From Escherichia coli (GTDB lineage Bacteria; Pseudomonadota; Gammaproteobacteria; Enterobacterales; Enterobacteriaceae): a stretch of DNA of 64,000 nucleotides. The translations under genes and the position numbers were made by a program. The stretch lies in NCBI RefSeq assembly GCF_001677475.2, contig NZ_CP015229.1. One strand, 5' to 3'. Positions 9,507 to 30,891 of the stretch are shown piece by piece; positions within the stretch are counted from its first letter, which is position 1; each line of letters opens with the position of its first letter. The notes beneath the pieces are model-generated. The model did no database searches. It was not told the DNA's origin and saw only the letters and a program-made list of their open reading frames with translations.

Positions 9507-9801
9507 TATTGTAATCTGCCTTTCTCCTACATGGTTATTAACAGGGAATTTTCGAAAGAGAGTTCCCGATTAAAAGCCATAAAACACACTCCAGTACAGT
9601 GTTTTCATAGTCAGTGATCTATACATCATAAAAACATAACAAGTATAGATTGAGTGTTAATCCTCCCGCCCTTCGGGGCGGTTATTTTCTGGCTTTACTA
9701 GATAATGTAGCATCATGTTCATTATAAACCTCATCTTTGTTGTGCAAACCTAACCTTAACCTAAGTATAGGGAGTCTCTTAAATGGGACTCCCTTTTTTT
9801 A

Positions 9802-10044
9802 TTATGCAACCACTCGAAGTGTAGGTTTCTTATGTTGTGTAGGTTTATTGCCATTTCGCCACTCAGGAAACACCTGATCCATCATAACCGCGTTAGTTTC
9901 ATCAATCAGCTTTAGAGTCTTTCGTAATGCGGCGTTATCAGCTTTAAGCGATTTAATCTCTGAATCCATCTTAGCCATACGCTCTTTCATGTTGGTAATT
10001 TCTAACATCAGATTACCCAGAAATTCTTTGTTTTGATTAATCAT
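9802..10044 (-). CDS. Hypothetical coiled-coil protein (80 aa)
   Basis: ORF with heptad-like region MKERMAKMDSEIKSLKADNAALRKTLKL; last gene of a leftward 3-gene cluster. Confidence 0.45.
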   Translation of the reverse strand: MINQNKEFLGNLMLEITNMKERMAKMDSEIKSLKADNAALRKTLKLIDETNAVMMDQVFPEWRNGNKPTQHKKPTLRVVA

Positions 10045-10059
10045 AGAATTACCCCTCTA

Positions 10060-11046
10060 TTAAGCTGCGTATGCGTAGGCGCTGTAGTTGGTGTCGTAAA
10101 TCGCGTCATGTAATGCCATGTGTGCTTCGCGGATCTCGTCTTCGTTTACTTCAATCTCTTCTTGTTCTTCTTCGGTATCTTCCCAGCTAGTTTTGAATTT
10201 AGTCATAAAGTTGGTGCGCAGAGTTTCAAAGTTGGTAACTGGTGCGGATTCTGCTTCAACCGGAACCGGAACAACTACCGGATCAGCTTCTTGTTCTACT
10301 TCTTCACCGTTACCCCAGCGATAGTTAAGGAGTTCTTCATCAATGGATTTTTCTTCAACTGCTTTAACTTCAACCGCTGCTACTTCGAAAGTGGTTTCCT
10401 GTGCTGCCAGTTCAGCTTTCAGAGATGCGTTTTCAGCTTCCAGTTCAGCGATGCGTGCTTTCAGTGCTTCAACTTCGGAAGATTCAACCACTGCAACTTC
10501 TTCTTTAACTTCTTCAACTACTACCGGAGCAACTTCTTTCTGTGCTTCTTTTTTGCAGAAGAAGGAGGAAGTAACCTGTAATGCGTGGTTGTAGAAGGAA
10601 CCGCCTTTAGCGGTGTTAACAGTACCAGAAACATCTTTTACAGTGGATTCAGTAGCAACAGTACGGAAGCGTTTAGCAACTTCCTGGGTCTCTACGCCGT
10701 ATTCGTTGCGCTTGCTCTTGTGATGCATTACAGCACGGTAGCCGGAAGCAGTTTTAACAACAGCCAGATAGTAAGTTTCATCGGCTTTAACAGCACGAGC
10801 GAAGCAATAAACGGATTCACCTTCTACCAGTGTAGGTTTAACGTGACGTTTGTCGAAACGGTTAGTGATCTGCCATTCAGCACCGTCTTTGATGCCAGCA
10901 TTCTGACGCATTTCGGTCAGAGTCTTACCGGATACTACTTCAAAGGATTTGTCTTGTTTGCTTGCTTTACCTTCCATAACAGTAATGTTCAGTTTGCCGT
11001 TGGATTTAATAAACATGTTGAAGGTAATGCGCTTAGAATTTTTCAT
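10060..11046 (-). CDS. Hypothetical protein (328 aa): basic N-terminal domain, acidic coiled-coil C-terminal half
   Basis: ORF; C-terminal EVEALKARIAELEAENASLKAELAA and many E/D-rich stretches; no catalytic motif recognised. Confidence 0.5.
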   Translation of the reverse strand: MKNSKRITFNMFIKSNGKLNITVMEGKASKQDKSFEVVSGKTLTEMRQNAGIKDGAEWQITNRFDKRHVKPTLVEGESVYCFARAVKADETYYLAVVKTASGYRAVMHHKSKRNEYGVETQEVAKRFRTVATESTVKDVSGTVNTAKGGSFYNHALQVTSSFFCKKEAQKEVAPVVVEEVKEEVAVVESSEVEALKARIAELEAENASLKAELAAQETTFEVAAVEVKAVEEKSIDEELLNYRWGNGEEVEQEADPVVVPVPVEAESAPVTNFETLRTNFMTKFKTSWEDTEEEQEEIEVNEDEIREAHMALHDAIYDTNYSAYAYAA

Positions 11047-11163
11047 ATAAATACTCCTGAATACTCTGTGTTAGTTTTAATGTGTCATACTAAAAGCCTC
11101 CTTGCGCCAACAGGGAGGCTTTTTTATTTTTAAAGCCATCATATAATTCTCAGTGAAAGGTTA

Positions 11164-23346: not shown

Positions 23347-26271
23347 ATGCAATCAATCCAATTTAAACGAACTAGTGTTTCTGGCAAAAAACCTACGCCG
23401 GAACAATTACAGGTCGGTGAGGTAGCAATCAACCTTAAAGACCATGTTATTTTCACCAAAGACCGAGATAATGCCGTAGTTCAAATCTCTGTTTCTCCTG
23501 AAACTCACACTGCATTAGAAACTAAAGTTAATGCGAATAAGAAAGAATTAGACGGCAAGATTACTACAAATCACAACAATATTAACGCTAAAGTAGATGA
23601 AATTAAACAAACTACTGATGCAACTATCGCAGCAAATCACGCAGAAATTAACAATAAAGTTGATGTGATTAAGCGCGAAACCGATGCGACAATCACGGCT
23701 AATAAAAATAAAGCTGCTTCCGACCTTGCTGGCGTTAAAGCTGAATTGTCCGATACCATCACCGCTAATAAAAATGCGGCTGCTGTAGCAACTCAGGAAC
23801 TGGACACCCGCATCAATAAAAAAGTTGATGATAACAAAGCTAAAACTGATGCAACTATCGCCAGCAATCACAAAGCAATCAATGACAAAGTTGATTTGAT
23901 TAAGGCCGAGACTGACCGCACTATCGCAGCAAATAAAACATATGCTGATACTCAGCTAACTAATGCTACTAATGATCTGAATACTGTCATTGCTGCAAAT
24001 AAAAAAGAAGCTGCTGATAGCGTGGCTGCATTAACTAAGACTGTAAACACTAAAGATACAGCGATTCATAGAAAAGTTGACGAGAATAAAGCACTGACCG
24101 ACGCGGAATTATCCCGTTTGTCTGGACGACTTGAAGATGTTGCTAGTATTGGTCAAAACCGAGGCGAATTGCCAGTAGATGCTAATCTTGATCACTATGG
24201 TCCACGTTCAGAATTTGCTGGTATTTGGGGTAAATCGACTTCAACGAATGCACAACCAAGTCACAATTTCCCAGAAGAAAATGCTGTAGGTGTTCTGGAA
24301 GTTTTCACAGGCGGTCAATTCTCTGGGACTCAGCGTTATACAACACGCTACGGTAATATCTACATTCGTTCTCTTACCGCTACATGGAATGGTACTGATG
24401 GTCCGTGGTCGCCGTGGCGCAATATTCAGATGGGTACACGTCCGCTTTCGTCAACCATCGATCTTAATGATTTGGGTGGAGTTGAGCATTTTGGTTTATG
24501 GCGCAATAGCTCTAACTCAATTGCGGCTCTAGAAAGGAATTTCCCAGAAGCTGGGGCGATGGCACAAGGTCTTTTAGAAGTCTTTGAGGGTGGCAACTAC
24601 TCCCGCACTCAGCGTTATACGACCAGAATGGGCGTTGTATATGTTCGCTGTCTTGCTGCTGCATGGGATGCTAGTGCTCCTAAATGGGGTCCGTGGCAAC
24701 AAGTAGGTAATGTAACACCGTCTACTTTCTATGACGGAAACCTGAACAACTTCAAAACACCTGGTTTATATAACATTTTAGGCACTGACAAAGTTACTAA
24801 CCGTCCTGTTGCAGAAGGTGTTCCGGTTGAGATGACCGCATTGCTTGAGGTTAAACAGCGTGCTTCCGGTGGCGCTATTTTCCAACGTTTCACTACCGCA
24901 GGAACGGGAACTACTACCCGTGGTCGTGTTTTTGAACGTGCAATGACAAATAATATCTGGGGAGATTGGCACGAAGTACATACATCATATTCTATGCCAA
25001 TTACTTTAGGTATCGGTGGGATTAAAACACAATTAGAATCTTTAGATTGGCAAACTTTTGATTTTGTTCCTGGTAGCATGTTTAGCGTGCCATTGAATAA
25101 AATTACCAATATGCCAGCAAAAATGGATTGGGGAACAATTGACGGAAACCTGATCATGTTTTCCGTTGGTCCTAGTGAACACACTAGCACAGGGCGTACT
25201 GTTCAGGTTTGGCGTGGTACTGTGTCTCAAGCAAACTACCGTTATTTTGTTGTTCGTGTATTTGGTAATTCAGGAGAGAGAACTTGCACCGTTCGCCGTG
25301 TTGCTCTTGAGGATGGTCGCCATACATGGACAGCACAACAAGATTTTAACGGCGCGGTTAACTTCGGTGGGTCTGTTGTTAACTTTAAAACAGCCACTAA
25401 CTTTAATAACACTACCAGTTTTAAAACAGAAGCTAAATTTCTTTCATCTAATGCATTCCGTATGTATGGCGGTAATTTTGGTGCATTCTTGCGTAATGAT
25501 GGTGAAAGTGTTTATCTTCTTTCCACCAATGAAAATGATAAAGATGGAAACTATAATACAAATAGACCTTTCCGGTATCAGTTAAAAACTGGTGATGTTA
25601 CTTTGGGTGGAACTAGCGGTGCTGATATTTTAAGATTAAAAAGTAGTTCTCTTGCTGCTACCTTTGGCGGTGATGTTAATTTAAGTAAAGGCGTATTGAC
25701 GTTTGAAGCTGGCGGTAAGCAATCTCGCGATTATTTCCGGTTTAATCATTGGGGTGATAGCAATAAAGCTCGCGATAACATCATTCAGTTAGAAGATAGT
25801 AAAGGTGCTCATTTTTCCACTGAACGCACACTGGCAACGGGTGCAATCAAAACTAAGTTCTTTGGTGAAGTTGAATCCGATGGTCGATTAACTATTAAAC
25901 GTCCGGGTGATGCTATTGTATTATCGACTACAGCTAGCAACTCGTTGCATATTCGTGGTGATGTTGGTGGAAGCAATAACTGGTATATTGGTAAAGGTGG
26001 TGCTGATAATTCACTAGCATTTTATAGCTACGCAACTAAAGCGGGTATACACATCACAAATAATGGTGAGATATCATTTGCCCCGCAAAATTTTGCTGGT
26101 ATTAACATTAACAAAGACCGTATCTATATCAATGCTACACAATGGATTGCTAATCATTCCGGTTCATGGGATGGACAGTGGAGAGAAGAAGCACCCATCT
26201 TTATTGATCAGGGTAGTGTTGGACAAGATAGCTATTATCCTCTTATTAAAGGACATAGCCAGATCACAGGT
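23347..26271 (+). CDS. Tail fibre protein (974 codons), 3' end interrupted by an IS3-family element
   Basis: Repeated KVDxIKxxTDATIxANxxxIN helical repeats; C-terminal GSNNWYIGKGGADN resembles T7 gp17 tip motif NNWYIGRGSDN; stop codon TGA is the first 3 bases of the IS. Confidence 0.75.
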
Positions 26272-26328
26272 TGAATCGCCACGGGTTTAACAGACACCTC
26301 AGAGTCATTTAAGATGGCTTAAAGAGAG

Positions 26329-26613
26329 GTGCCCATGAGCGGTAAGCGTTATCCCGAAGAGTTTAAAATTGAAGCAGTCAAACAGGTTGTTGATCGCGGT
26401 TATTCTGTTGCCAGCGTTGCAACACGTCTCGATATCACCACCCACAGCCTTTACGCCTGGATAAAGAAGTACGGTCCGGATTCTTCCGCTAATAAAGAAC
26501 AGTCAGATGCTCAGGCCGAGATCCGCCGTCTCCAGAAAGAGCTGAAGCGGGTTACCGACGAACGGGACATATTAAAAAAAGCCGCGGCGTACTTCGCAAA
26601 GCTGTCCGACTGA
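26329..26613 (+). CDS. IS3-family transposase OrfA (HTH, leucine-zipper region)
   Basis: 94 aa ORF MSGKRYPEEFKIEAVKQVV...; ends shortly after the A7 slippery site. Confidence 0.85.
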   Translation: MPMSGKRYPEEFKIEAVKQVVDRGYSVASVATRLDITTHSLYAWIKKYGPDSSANKEQSDAQAEIRRLQKELKRVTDERDILKKAAAYFAKLSD

Positions 26614-27482
26614 GGTACGCCTTTATCCGTGACAACACCTGTTGCTGGCCTGTTCGCCTGCTCTGTCGGGTGCTGGATGTTCATCCCAGTGGTTTTTACG
26701 CCTGGCTTCAGCAGCCGCATTCACAACGCCATCAGGCAGACCTGAGGCTGACAGGGCAGATTAAACAGTTCTGGCTGGAATCGGGATGCGTCTATGGTTA
26801 TCGCAAAATCCATCTGGATCTGCGGGACAGCGGGCAACAGTGCGGAGTGAACAGAGTCTGGCGACTGATGAAACGTGTCGGGATAAAGGCTCAGGTCGGA
26901 TACCGGAGCCCGCGGGCACGTAAAGGCGAGGCCAGTATCGTGTCGCCCAACAGGCTCCAGCGACAGTTCAATCCGGATGCTCCGGATAAGCGTTGGGTAA
27001 CGGACATAACCTACATCAGGACCCACGAAGGCTGGCTGTATCTTGCCGTGGTTGTTGATCTGTTCTCACGCAAAATTATCGGCTGGTCCATGCAATCCCG
27101 GATGACAAAGGACATTGTCCTGAACGCACTGCTGATGGCTGTATGGCGCCGTAATCCCCAAAAACAGGTGCTGGTTCATTCGGATCAGGGCAGTCAGTAC
27201 ACAAGCCATGAGTGGCAGTCGTTCCTGAAATCACACGGCCTGGAGGGCAGCATGAGCCGTCGCGGTAACTGCCATGATAATGCGGTTGCAGAAAGCTTTT
27301 TCCAGTTGTTGAAACGCGAACGGATAAAGAAAAAGATCTACGGAACGCGGGAAGAAGCCCGCAGCGATATTTTTGATTACATCGAAATGTTTTATAACAG
27401 TAAGCGTCGGCATGGTTCCAGCGATCAGATGTCACCGACAGAATATGAAAACCAGTATTATCAACGGCTCGGAAGTGTCTAG
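26575..27482 (+). CDS. IS3-family transposase OrfB (integrase catalytic DDE domain), expressed as OrfAB by -1 frameshift; ORF-track ATG at 26670
   Basis: -1 frame relative to orfA, open from the slippery site; motifs WVTDITYIRT, VVDLFSRKIIGW, HSDQGSQYTS, NAVAESFF. Confidence 0.85.
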
Positions 27483-27548
27483 ATTATCCGTGGCGATTCA
27501 GACAAATTTATTAAATTTGGAATCACTACCCGAAAACCAGAAGAACGA

Positions 27549-27938
27549 ATGAGAGAGCAAACCAGAAAGAGCAACTTCACTCACCGATTAATCTTTACTC
27601 ATGAGTTTGAGGATGGTTGGAAAGCTGCCGATTTAGAGCATGAAGTAAAACAACGCTTCAAGACTCATGCCGCACCCTACAAAGATTTCAAGGATGGATG
27701 GTCGGAAACTCTGACTATCGATGAGTTGCCACACTTACAGCAACTGGTTTATGACTACCTAACCAATCAACCGGACGAGGCTAATATGTGGGTATCCCCG
27801 AAAGATGTATTTGATGACGATACATTCAAGCTACATACTCACTTCTACGGCATCAATAAACCGGAATTTTTCTGTATTGATGACGATAGTCCTGATTTAA
27901 TGGATGAATACTTTAATTCTCTCTTAGACGCTGCCTAA
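27549..27938 (+). CDS. Hypothetical protein (129 aa from first ATG; open frame extends upstream to the IS end at 27501), probably 5'-truncated; possible GIY-YIG/T5orf172-like domain
   Basis: Frame is open from 27501 (DKFIKFGITTRKPEERMREQ...); KFGITT...R...E pattern recalls the second motif of GIY-YIG/T5orf172 domains; weak, from memory only. Confidence 0.35.
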   Translation: MREQTRKSNFTHRLIFTHEFEDGWKAADLEHEVKQRFKTHAAPYKDFKDGWSETLTIDELPHLQQLVYDYLTNQPDEANMWVSPKDVFDDDTFKLHTHFYGINKPEFFCIDDDSPDLMDEYFNSLLDAA

Positions 27939-27950
27939 CGCAATTAAATT

Positions 27951-27973
27951 AAAAAGGGGTACATCTGTACCCC
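27951..27973 (-). terminator. Hairpin terminator downstream of the recombinase gene
   Basis: GGGGTAC-ATCT-GTACCCC stem-loop preceded on the plus strand by AAAAA (T-tract on the minus strand). Confidence 0.5.
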
Positions 27974-28011
27974 TTAAAGCGTTTATCTCGTTATACGTCG
28001 ATTTAGGCCGC

Positions 28012-29709
28012 TTAAATTCCAAATTCCTGCAACAATCCCGGTTGTTCTTCTTCTGGTTTCCAGTTCTTATCTGTCAGCATTTCTAAACATGGATGCAGAA
28101 CAAGCCCGTTGCTCTCCAGAATCTGCCTATCATTGATAGTCTTCACGTCTACAAAAATTCTCCCTTTCCGGTTACGGCGTGACCTCTCGATCACTATCCT
28201 TTGCGTCTTCCCGTCGATGTACTCCATCACAAAATGATTATAATTGGTATCAATCTTGTAACATTTTATAGACTTAACAGCTTCTTTAATCTTCAATCGA
28301 ACTTTTAACCGTTCCTCGCTGCAAACATCCTCTAAATCAAATTGTGCGAGCTTCTCCCAGCCTTGAGAATCAACTGAATACATGTTCTCTTCTATTACCT
28401 TAATCTGGTTATAGATGGCCTCACGCTCATGATTCAGGGTAGTAATCTGGTCGGCTAACTCCTTCGTTGCTCCTGTCATTGCAGAAAGACTAATCAGGTT
28501 ATCAATCTTGCGTGAAATGTCTTCAATCTGGGCTTGCATTCCTGGGATCGGATTGGCCTTATCCTCAGCAATCCAGATTTTATCCGCCAGCAATTGCAAT
28601 ACAGCCTTATCCAGTTGATCACCACGAAAGCCCCAATTTGGATGATCACAATTGGTCCTCCTGCTATCTGCGCCATCGCACATATAACGATATTGGGCTA
28701 ATCTCTCTTTTGATGCTCCGCTTCTCTTAACCATACTTGCCCCACAATGACCACATCTAAGCAAACCAGCACCACTTAACAGGGTAATAACAGGACTAGA
28801 CTTAGTAGGATAAGAAAACGACCTCAGTCCTATAGTCTTCTTGAGTTGATAGAACTCGGCATCTTCCATCACTCGCGGGTAATAATCCTTTAACTCATAT
28901 GTCACACCTTCAATGGTTATCTCTTTGATACCAAGTAAAGCGCGGTTAGAGAACATCCTGGCTAACATAGAACGCGCCCATTTCTTAGGGGTATCTTTGT
29001 TCGTTGTGTAATTAGGCGGGGCGATTCTTTCATTCAGATAATCAAGAACCCGACCATTAGAATAACCATTCTGTTTTAATTCAACGATTTTCTTGATAAC
29101 AGGAAAATACACCGGATGTGGAAGCACATAACCCGATGAAGTATCAGCCCACCATATATTGCGACCAACTTCCTCGATTGCCACTGCCGGATTTTGTGGA
29201 TTCTCCTGATGGGCTTTAACCTTGAGTAGTGCGCTTGAGTTAGTGCGATTGCGTTTAGTCTGACTTTCCTCATTTGCACGAGCAAACAACATTACACTCA
29301 ACAGTAAATCGATGGGATTAGCATTAACCGATTCTTTGCTATATACCTTCCCATCCATACCAGTAACAATTGTTATTCCCCTGCGGATGATCGAAAGGAA
29401 TAGCTCTTGAGCTTCAATAACAGATTGACGGGAGATACGGTCTAAGTTTTCCACCACCAGCCAGCTACCAACCGGAACGGATCGACCAATTTCATCCAGA
29501 AAACGAGATAATGCACCTGTTTTACTGTTAGCCCCTTTGAATGCAGATACACCGAAATCCTGATAGGAAGTAACTAGCTCAAGATCATATTTTGCGGCTA
29601 TCTCTTTCGCTGTTCTCTTCTGGCGTTCAAATGAGCTACCATCGGCTTGCTTCATGGAAGAGAAGCGAATATACGAATACAGTTTAGTTTTCATACCATT
29701 TCCAAACAA
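28012..29709 (-). CDS. Large serine recombinase (integrase), 565 aa
   Basis: N-terminal resolvase-type catalytic domain (YSYIRFSSMKQ with candidate nucleophile Ser, VVENLDRISRQ), recombinase domain, Cys-rich zinc ribbon CGHCG...C...C, C-terminal coiled-coil. Confidence 0.88.
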   Translation of the reverse strand: MFGNGMKTKLYSYIRFSSMKQADGSSFERQKRTAKEIAAKYDLELVTSYQDFGVSAFKGANSKTGALSRFLDEIGRSVPVGSWLVVENLDRISRQSVIEAQELFLSIIRRGITIVTGMDGKVYSKESVNANPIDLLLSVMLFARANEESQTKRNRTNSSALLKVKAHQENPQNPAVAIEEVGRNIWWADTSSGYVLPHPVYFPVIKKIVELKQNGYSNGRVLDYLNERIAPPNYTTNKDTPKKWARSMLARMFSNRALLGIKEITIEGVTYELKDYYPRVMEDAEFYQLKKTIGLRSFSYPTKSSPVITLLSGAGLLRCGHCGASMVKRSGASKERLAQYRYMCDGADSRRTNCDHPNWGFRGDQLDKAVLQLLADKIWIAEDKANPIPGMQAQIEDISRKIDNLISLSAMTGATKELADQITTLNHEREAIYNQIKVIEENMYSVDSQGWEKLAQFDLEDVCSEERLKVRLKIKEAVKSIKCYKIDTNYNHFVMEYIDGKTQRIVIERSRRNRKGRIFVDVKTINDRQILESNGLVLHPCLEMLTDKNWKPEEEQPGLLQEFGI

Positions 29710-29757: not shown

Positions 29758-30171
29758 TTAAAGAATTTCACGGCAGCTAATCAGGGTATAAGATGTATCA
29801 CCTTTTTTAACATCAAATATAGGAGCGCCATCTACAGAATGCAGATATTTGATGTAGGATTTACCATCTTCGGAACCATAATATTCTTCTTTCTCGTTCT
29901 TATCTTCTTTCAGTTTCGGGCTTTTGATTGTTCTATCAAATACCGGATCGTTGAAAGCAAATTGACTATTATCATCATTCACGCGAACTTTCACACCGAT
30001 AAAGCCACGGTATTTTCCAGACGGTGCATGATAATAACGGTCGCCATCACTCAGGTAGCGTGTATCATCTCCTTTATGTTCGAAGTAGGAATTACACACA
30101 TAATAGGTATTAGCATTAGCAGTACCAACCAAACCCATAGCAAGAACGATACCAGCGATAATCTTTTTCAT
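29758..30171 (-). CDS. Exported protein (137 aa) with N-terminal signal peptide
   Basis: MKKIIAGIVLAMGLVGTANA signal-like N-terminus; two Cys residues; no other motif. Confidence 0.5.
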   Translation of the reverse strand: MKKIIAGIVLAMGLVGTANANTYYVCNSYFEHKGDDTRYLSDGDRYYHAPSGKYRGFIGVKVRVNDDNSQFAFNDPVFDRTIKSPKLKEDKNEKEEYYGSEDGKSYIKYLHSVDGAPIFDVKKGDTSYTLISCREIL

Positions 30172-30483: not shown

Positions 30484-30891
30484 TTAAGCGCGAACGATGG
30501 TCAGAGTATCCAGCAAACCTTTTTCGTATAATTCGAAACACGTTTTATATTGCTCAATCTTCCAACCGTAGCGGGTGATCTTATTCAGTAGAACAATCGC
30601 GCTACTTTCATCCAGATATTGCCCCTGCTTACCGATTACATAAGTCTCACGATTCAGCTTTAACTTACGGAAACCTTTAACACCTAATTCCTTAGCCACC
30701 GCTTTAATCTCTTTAATCTCACCTTCTGCGGCTACATATTCAGCGTCGATAATCTCAGGTGATGATCTCAGTGCTACCAGAACTAAGGCCATTGCTTCTT
30801 CTTCGGTACGAGCAACACCAGCTTTCTCGAAAGTCATCTCACCAAATTTACGAATCATGATATTGAACATTGTCTGTATTCCTGCGTTCAA
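30484..30891 (-). CDS. Hypothetical protein (135 aa; alternative start at MFNIMIRK), last gene before the right junction
   Basis: ORF only; start faces the right island boundary. Confidence 0.45.
   Translation of the reverse strand: MNAGIQTMFNIMIRKFGEMTFEKAGVARTEEEAMALVLVALRSSPEIIDAEYVAAEGEIKEIKAVAKELGVKGFRKLKLNRETYVIGKQGQYLDESSAIVLLNKITRYGWKIEQYKTCFELYEKGLLDTLTIVRA

Follow-up and report, generated by a model that had tools for sequence, protein, structure and literature searches.

A short open reading frame (ORF) lies on the plus strand, at positions 27501-27938, of the 64,000-nt stretch of Escherichia coli DNA analyzed here (contig NZ_CP015229.1 of assembly GCF_001677475.2; the window), between an insertion sequence (IS) and the integrase gene of a prophage in codB. 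We consider it very probable that this ORF is a nonfunctional remnant, the last third, of a phage gene encoding a GIY-YIG nuclease of the T5orf172/MUG113 type, left in place by an IS-associated deletion of prophage DNA. As such, the remnant is nothing unusual, a gene fragment of a known type truncated by an IS; it matters only for annotation, where it should carry the label of a GIY-YIG (T5orf172/MUG113) nuclease pseudogene fragment.

The remnant and the intact gene

The open frame runs from 27483, inside the IS end, to a stop codon at 27936-27938 and spans 151 codons. Its translation reads IIRGDS-DKFIKFGITTRKPEERMREQ...LLDAA before the stop, the first six codons being the right end of the IS. 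When 27495-27990 was compared with complete E. coli genomes, every DNA match started exactly at 27501; at this junction, the window reads ...GGCGATTCA followed by GACAAATTT, where the intact gene has ...TTATTAGAT followed by GACAAATTT. Of 5426 complete E. coli genomes, 12 contain at least 80% of the query, and in all five copies examined, the matching DNA is the 3′ end of a 1176-nt gene encoding 391 amino acids (aa), named "GIY-YIG nuclease family protein" in RefSeq in four cases and "hypothetical protein" in one. The 438 nt of the remnant are 97% identical to the 3′ end of this gene. They differ from the five intact genes at 10 to 15 of 438 positions, with 6 to 10 synonymous and 2 or 3 nonsynonymous codon differences, and the window ORF scores 122 bits against a profile built from 127 nuclease domains. 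Given so few differences and this profile score, the remnant is not a chance ORF. Its features are as follows; residue and codon numbers, here and throughout, are those of the intact 391-aa protein and 391-codon gene.

27501-27938, plus strand: remnant of the nuclease gene, codons 247-391 of 391 and the stop codon (basis: 97% nucleotide identity, residue alignment and Pfam MUG113 at 29.7 bits)
27501-27764, plus strand: nuclease domain (GIY-YIG, T5orf172/MUG113 type) without its strand β1
27513-27515, 27519-27521, 27546-27548, 27636-27638 and 27705-27707, plus strand: retained nuclease codons K251, G253, R262, E292 and E315, respectively
27549-27551, plus strand: first in-frame start codon, M263, downstream of KFG and R262
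27765-27935, plus strand: acidic C-terminal tail, 14 Asp/Glu against 3 Lys/Arg, found only in the closest relatives and modeled by AlphaFold2 with a predicted local distance difference test score (pLDDT) below 50

A preliminary description of this region, which called for a search for full-length homologues, had the ORF open right from the IS boundary, truncated at its 5′ end and next to an integrase gene. All of this holds: the matches to intact genes begin at the boundary, 246 of the 391 codons are missing, and the neighboring gene encodes a large serine recombinase. One correction concerns the domain. The fragment had been likened to the second half of a nuclease domain; in fact, it holds the whole domain minus the first strand, plus a 56-aa acidic tail, and it is mainly a zinc-finger DNA-binding region that has gone. 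In the intact protein, of which WP_282863017 from E. coli ETEC1703 is an example, CapR-type modules take up the N-terminal 230 residues, the nuclease domain follows at 238-334, and the acidic 56-aa tail completes the chain.

Family assignment rests on several profiles. Pfam MUG113 (PF13455; gathering cut-off, 22.3 bits) gave 29.7 bits for the fragment and 27.9 for the full-length protein, which also matched CapR (PF21817; cut-off, 24.2 bits) at 39.2 bits over two stretches. PHROG 681, "endonuclease," was matched at 1e-22 by the fragment and at 2e-42 by the full-length protein. Among 50 relatives, 25 matched MUG113 and 17 matched T5orf172 at an E value of ≤0.01; MUG113 is accepted as equivalent to T5orf172 (PMC10448857). 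NCBIfam assigned the fragment to no family, and its sole match to the full-length protein, a zinc ribbon, was below threshold. Only ten close clusters, 38-96% identical and drawn from E. coli, Shigella and Salmonella, came out of a word-indexed search, and an exhaustive profile search yielded 2914 representatives at E ≤ 1e-3, 620 of them at E ≤ 1e-10. The nuclease domain was present in 140 of the 157 sequences in hand, nearly always within 10 residues of the C terminus, and the region before it ranged from 46 to 516 residues among family members.

The motifs that had first suggested a GIY-YIG/T5orf172-like domain proved to be real family motifs. Eight residues, Y241, K251, G253, R262, E292, G312, E315 and T316, do not vary across the 127 nuclease domains aligned, and G285 (followed by W286 in close relatives) and the D311-G-W-S-E315-T stretch are invariant or nearly so. 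Since these domains are only 24-77% identical, the invariance of Y241, R262, E292 and E315 points to a conserved active site. The arrangement is the T5orf172 form of the GIY-YIG pattern, with Tyr on strand 1, K-F-G on strand 2, Arg on helix 1, Glu on helix 2 and then G-x-x-E-T. The "YIG" glycine strand (K251-F-G253) and the catalytic Arg (R262) are present in the window at 27513-27548. The first-strand "GIY" tyrosine is found in the intact homologue and missing from the window copy, the Tyr241 codon being six codons upstream of the IS junction. A lysine in place of the YIG tyrosine is usual in T5orf172-type domains. The invariant helix-2 Glu, E292, at the presumed catalytic or metal-binding position, is matched by a conserved Glu in the UPF0213 protein 1zg2 and, judging from the order of secondary-structure elements, would be the equivalent of I-TevI E75.

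Structure prediction agrees with this assignment. An AlphaFold model of the domain, built with 50 diverse relatives, reached a pLDDT of 92.3 and shows the order β-β-α-β-α-α, with a three-stranded sheet against helices, as in the GIY-YIG fold. Searched against PDB sequences, the nuclease-domain profile had only a weak match (E = 0.18), to the GIY-YIG protein 1zg2, with Tyr, Gly, Arg and Glu correctly aligned; a search of the PDB with the full-length protein sequence returned nothing. The full-length model (pLDDT, 79) has three repeated N-terminal modules and a disordered, acidic C-terminal tail. Two of the modules carry Cys/His sets that are at least 90% conserved (C118, H121, C141 and C144; C199, H202, C218 and C221). 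The N-terminal modules presumably recognize DNA, and the intact gene product is predicted to have nuclease activity.

Like the Pfam MUG113/T5orf172 domains of the GIY-YIG clan, the fragment keeps the KFG, R, E and G-x-x-E-T motifs; unlike them, it lacks the GIY strand. The protein differs from canonical GIY-YIG nucleases (I-TevI, UvrC and SLX1) in that the tyrosine of the second motif is a lysine and the Glu of G-x-x-E-T stands where the C-terminal Asn is in those enzymes. The DNA-binding modules differ as well, being CapR fingers here and a zinc finger with a helix-turn-helix in I-TevI.

What survives in the window appears to be without function. The CapR-type zinc-finger region is wholly deleted, and the first ATG, GTG or TTG in frame is that of M263, past K251, G253 and R262. 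No Shine-Dalgarno-like sequence precedes M263, and no plus-strand promoter-like site was found in 27300-28100. Rfam gave no match over 26000-28200, so that no annotated frameshift element or other RNA was found there. The remainder of the nuclease gene was sought elsewhere in the window by tblastn and a six-frame hidden Markov model scan, with an IS-mediated inversion in mind, and was not found; the remnant DNA had no match in the phage collection. Because the DNA-binding modules and strand β1 with Tyr241 are lost and the first start codon lies past KFG and Arg262, we conclude that the window copy is a pseudogene, and presumably one that is not expressed. A product of the remnant would be able neither to bind its target nor to cleave it, lacking the DNA-binding region and the β1 Tyr241 and starting too late. 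Six public contigs carry an identical truncated ORF of 129 aa in the same surroundings; one of them is found in 13 samples and ends 78 nt upstream. This recurrence indicates that the truncated arrangement is real and inherited, and a break 78 nt upstream is what would be expected at an IS.

The insertion sequence and the prophage deletion

The larger features around the remnant are as follows.

7866-30905, no strand: defective prophage in codB, about 23 kb including the IS; ends approximate; colinear with an intact relative to 23503 and again from 27935
23347-26271, plus strand: tail-fibre gene (gp37-like distal subunit), its 3′ end cut by the IS, whose first three bases supply the TGA stop codon
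26272-27500, plus strand: IS3-family insertion sequence, 1229 bp, with orfA at 26329-26613 and orfB at 26670-27482; no flanking target duplication
27954-27975, no strand: G+C-rich hairpin where the nuclease and recombinase genes converge; resembles a terminator on the minus strand and is kept in relatives with different cargo
28012-29709, minus strand: large serine recombinase, 565 aa, the prophage integrase (codB-specific allele), with Pfam Resolvase, Recombinase and Zn_ribbon_recom domains

The IS carries imperfect inverted repeats of 38 nt at its two ends (TGAATCGCCACGG...), and IS3-family copies with 100% identity to it are found on many E. coli chromosomes and plasmids. The element has no target-site duplication, the flanks being ...CAGGT on one side and GACAA... 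on the other, and there is no second copy within the window. The tail-fibre ORF to its left matches PHROG 1699 only up to profile position 822 of 1000. Since the tail-fibre gene is truncated and matches its family only in part, and since a target duplication is lacking, the arrangement as read from the DNA is an IS-associated deletion of roughly 14-15 kb, and not a simple insertion. This deletion would have taken the 3′ end of the tail-fibre gene, other tail genes, the lysis genes, a helicase gene and nuclease codons 1-246. The remnant and the truncated tail-fibre gene thus mark the codB prophage as defective through an IS-associated deletion.

The prophage splits codB; the window otherwise carries prpBCDE on one side and codA, cynR, cynTSX and the lac genes on the other. 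Its genes come in the order small terminase, anti-repressor (Ant/Rha-type), large terminase, portal, capsid, tail protein, tail fibre, IS, remnant and recombinase. E. coli 39EVA has an intact 36-kb relative, also in codB, with additional genes between the tail fibre and the recombinase: tail tube, tape measure, tail tip, four small genes, an M15 peptidase and a cargo region. The tail-fibre gene of the window departs from that of the otherwise colinear 39EVA prophage after 23503. Over 2.1 kb, it has about 82% DNA identity to gp37-like distal long-tail-fibre genes of T-even phages, and several of the T-even phages with this match also hold uvsW and nuclease homologues.

The cassette of intact relatives and the likely role of the gene

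We compared five divergent homologues of the nuclease gene: the E. coli ycdX and hicB copies, another E. coli copy with 38% identity, and two from Salmonella with 61% and 44%. In each, the nuclease gene lies beside a serine recombinase gene and is convergent with it, and the left neighbors vary. The hicB prophages are informative, as that of L3Cip3 has a cassette and those of E275a and FDAARGOS_946 have none; these prophages are 92-93% identical overall and 97-100% identical at the boundaries. The L3Cip3 cassette is a segment of 3.46 kb that stands in place of 0.5 kb, with sharp limits at the terminator after the peptidase gene and at the recombinase stop codon. Within the cassette, a helicase gene with a UvsW_N domain stands between a 184-aa gene and the 391-aa gene. 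The helicase has 80% protein identity to UvsW of Krischvirus JK32 and about 81% DNA identity to RB49-like uvsW; its matches in PADLOC were only of the generic helicase level. The 184-aa protein has one CapR finger and a T5orf172-type domain with every invariant residue. In Krischvirus JK32, the best phage homologue of the 391-aa protein comes directly after uvsW. A functional tie between the helicase and the nuclease gene was considered and rejected, as the divergent homologues stay beside the recombinase gene without a helicase. The cassette of intact relatives, at L001:3050-6438 and L007:5554-9010, is deleted in the window.

Other phages carry related genes. A tblastn search with the intact protein found 115 phage records. 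In 26 of these, the match extends over 80% or more of the query, with 24-30% identity among those listed. The records listed are from T4-like phages (Krischvirus and relatives), T5-like phages, and Vibrio and Aeromonas phages. Single genomes have homologues at as many as four places; in several cases, the annotation is endonuclease or putative homing endonuclease.

Genes of this architecture have been described. The PLE protein CapR, which binds DNA and has a zinc finger, is related to N-terminal domains found in a set of ICP1 proteins; these proteins have C-terminal T5orf172 domains and were interpreted as homing endonucleases (PMC8096241; Netter et al., 2021). In a survey of phages, 87% of T5orf172 homing endonuclease genes (HEGs) had at least one CapR, DUF723 or DUF4397 finger, often repeated, and HEGs were found to bracket conserved cargo in "HEG-islands" (PMC10448857; Barth et al., 2023). 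The intact homologue has the layout of the CapR/T5orf172 HEGs (ICP1 Gp174, Gp165, Gp121 and others), with repeated CapR modules at the N terminus and the nuclease at or near the C terminus, and its relatives are likewise multi-copy in phage genomes, next to conserved genes. As in a HEG-island, it brackets, together with the 184-aa gene, a cargo gene that is DNA-conserved between unrelated phages; this is seen in several of the intact relatives, and the window keeps just the remnant.

There are also differences from the CapR/T5orf172 HEGs. The gene belongs to temperate, integrase-bearing prophages of E. coli, Shigella and Salmonella, at a fixed site beside a serine recombinase gene; its product has the extra 56-aa acidic tail; and its zinc ligands are CxxH...CxxC rather than the CxxC...CxC of those proteins. 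The window copy, furthermore, is the 3′ third of the gene only and inactive. To our knowledge, CapR/T5orf172 homing endonucleases have hitherto been reported from virulent phages and their satellites. Here, such a gene, with what looks like a uvsW-carrying HEG-island, sits beside the integrase of temperate enterobacterial prophages, although the island itself lies outside the surviving sequence of the window. The uvsW and tail-fibre DNA is about 80% identical to that of RB49-like T-even phages; nuclease-driven exchange of genes across the virulent-temperate divide could be studied here in a concrete example.

Within this overall explanation, we lean toward the intact gene being a free-standing homing endonuclease. 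The HEG-island layout of the cassette favors this reading, and the preliminary description, which had left the choice between a homing and an anti-phage role, finds better support on its homing side: relatives are multi-copy and reside in virulent phages, and the anti-phage side drew no match in PADLOC. One can envision that the nuclease would cut genomes without the cassette and that repair would then copy the cassette in; homing of this kind would be the likely role of the intact gene.

Several points weigh against this explanation or parts of it. Profile searches for a GIY-YIG/T5orf172 family, proposed at the outset, succeeded with MUG113 and PHROG 681, but T5orf172 itself (PF10544; cut-off, 20 bits) stayed below threshold, at 16.5 bits for the fragment and 19.4 for the full-length protein. 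Foldseek against the PDB gave no significant match. The integrase-proximal slot holds different cargo across relatives, which is also the pattern of a defense hotspot. A cluster of substitutions or a dip in identity beside the cassette limits, as a protected homing site might leave, was sought and not found, the flanks being 97-100% identical. Finally, a single TAG stands between orfB and the remnant, which share a frame, making a read-through fusion conceivable.

The variable slot raises the question of whether the intact gene might be a prophage anti-phage nuclease, serving exclusion or defense, and the remnant a dead defense gene. There are precedents in PD-T4-3 and in Odn (ICP1 Gp88), a domesticated T5orf172 nuclease. 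Odn is a distant protein with the same type of nuclease domain as the one discussed here, and cleavage has been demonstrated for it (PMC8263062); it differs in having a RepA_N DNA-binding domain, with which it targets a satellite origin, and no such domain is present here. We regard a defense role as unlikely: PADLOC-DB 2.0 matches neither the intact protein nor the fragment, homologues with the full architecture are multi-copy in virulent phages and adjoin essential genes, and the cassette shows the HEG-island layout. A variant of this idea, which we offer as a speculation with the odds against it, is that in a lysogen the intact cassette acts against incoming RB49-like T-even phages, its nucleases cutting near the uvsW gene of the invader and so excluding it or converting it to the prophage allele. 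If this were true, the cassette would be a HEG-island that also serves as a defense and lets genes pass between virulent and temperate phages, and the remnant would be the relic of such a system, which disappeared along with the tail and lysis genes.

CapR is a repressor derived from genes of this kind (PMC8096241), and one might imagine that the intact protein is likewise a domesticated DNA-binding regulator with an inactive nuclease-like domain, all the more as its YIG motif has a lysine instead of the classical second tyrosine. We find this very improbable, given that Y241, R262, E292 and E315 are invariant across the 127 domains and that CapR itself has no nuclease domain.

The orfB stop codon, TAG at 27480-27482, shares its frame with the remnant, and amber read-through would yield a protein in which the nuclease fragment is joined to the transposase. 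Such a fusion, or a 129-aa product from M263, might conceivably still be used, perhaps with a dominant-negative or immunity-like effect. In favor of this, the ORF has 145 uninterrupted codons and few nonsynonymous differences, is in frame with orfB, and persists as an allele on 6 contigs, one of them in 13 samples. We give such use scarcely any credence, however. The low divergence reflects recent ancestry and not selection after truncation; neither a Shine-Dalgarno-like sequence nor a promoter-like site is present; and a product from M263 would be without Y241, K251, G253, R262 and strands β1 and β2, so that the fold should not form. The shared frame is probably a coincidence, with a one-in-three chance of arising by accident.

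Homology to a tail-fibre tip or chaperone, which the preliminary description had named as the finding that would overturn its proposal, can be dismissed: in the window, the ORF lies just downstream of the tail-fibre gene with only the IS between, but this adjacency was made by the deletion, the two genes are more than 10 kb apart in intact relatives, and no tail or chaperone family in Pfam or PHROGs shows similarity.

Additional observations on the prophage family

Further genes resembling those for homing endonucleases occur in this prophage family. The cargo slot of 39EVA holds a 195-aa CapR plus T5orf172 gene (L006:6819-7409); FDAARGOS_946 has a NUMOD3 gene between tail genes (L010:475-1248) that is absent in E275a; and a Salmonella prophage has a 348-aa double-CapR gene beyond the recombinase (L011:9951-10997).

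The recombinase alleles follow the integration site, with one for codB (window and 39EVA), one for ycdX (ETEC1703 and others) and one for hicB (L3Cip3 and E275a). The window gene has 95% nucleotide identity to that of the 39EVA codB prophage. Compared with the ycdX allele, identity is 90-99% across the nuclease gene, the spacer and approximately the last 90 nt of the recombinase gene and then falls to 52-85%, which places a recombination boundary just inside the 3′ end of the recombinase gene.

Two minus-strand ORFs sit between the recombinase gene and the right end of the prophage. That at 29758-30171 encodes a 137-aa product with a lipoprotein-like signal sequence (MKKIIAGIVLAMGLVGTANA), and that at 30484-30891 encodes a 135-aa product; neither had a match in Pfam or PADLOC. 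Relatives hold ORFs of similar size at these positions, although the ORF that takes the place of the 137-aa one in 39EVA is shorter. A 328-aa ORF at 10060-11046 (minus strand) had no match in PHROGs, and the early/regulatory part of the prophage, at 9800-13600 of the window, differs patchily from that of 39EVA.
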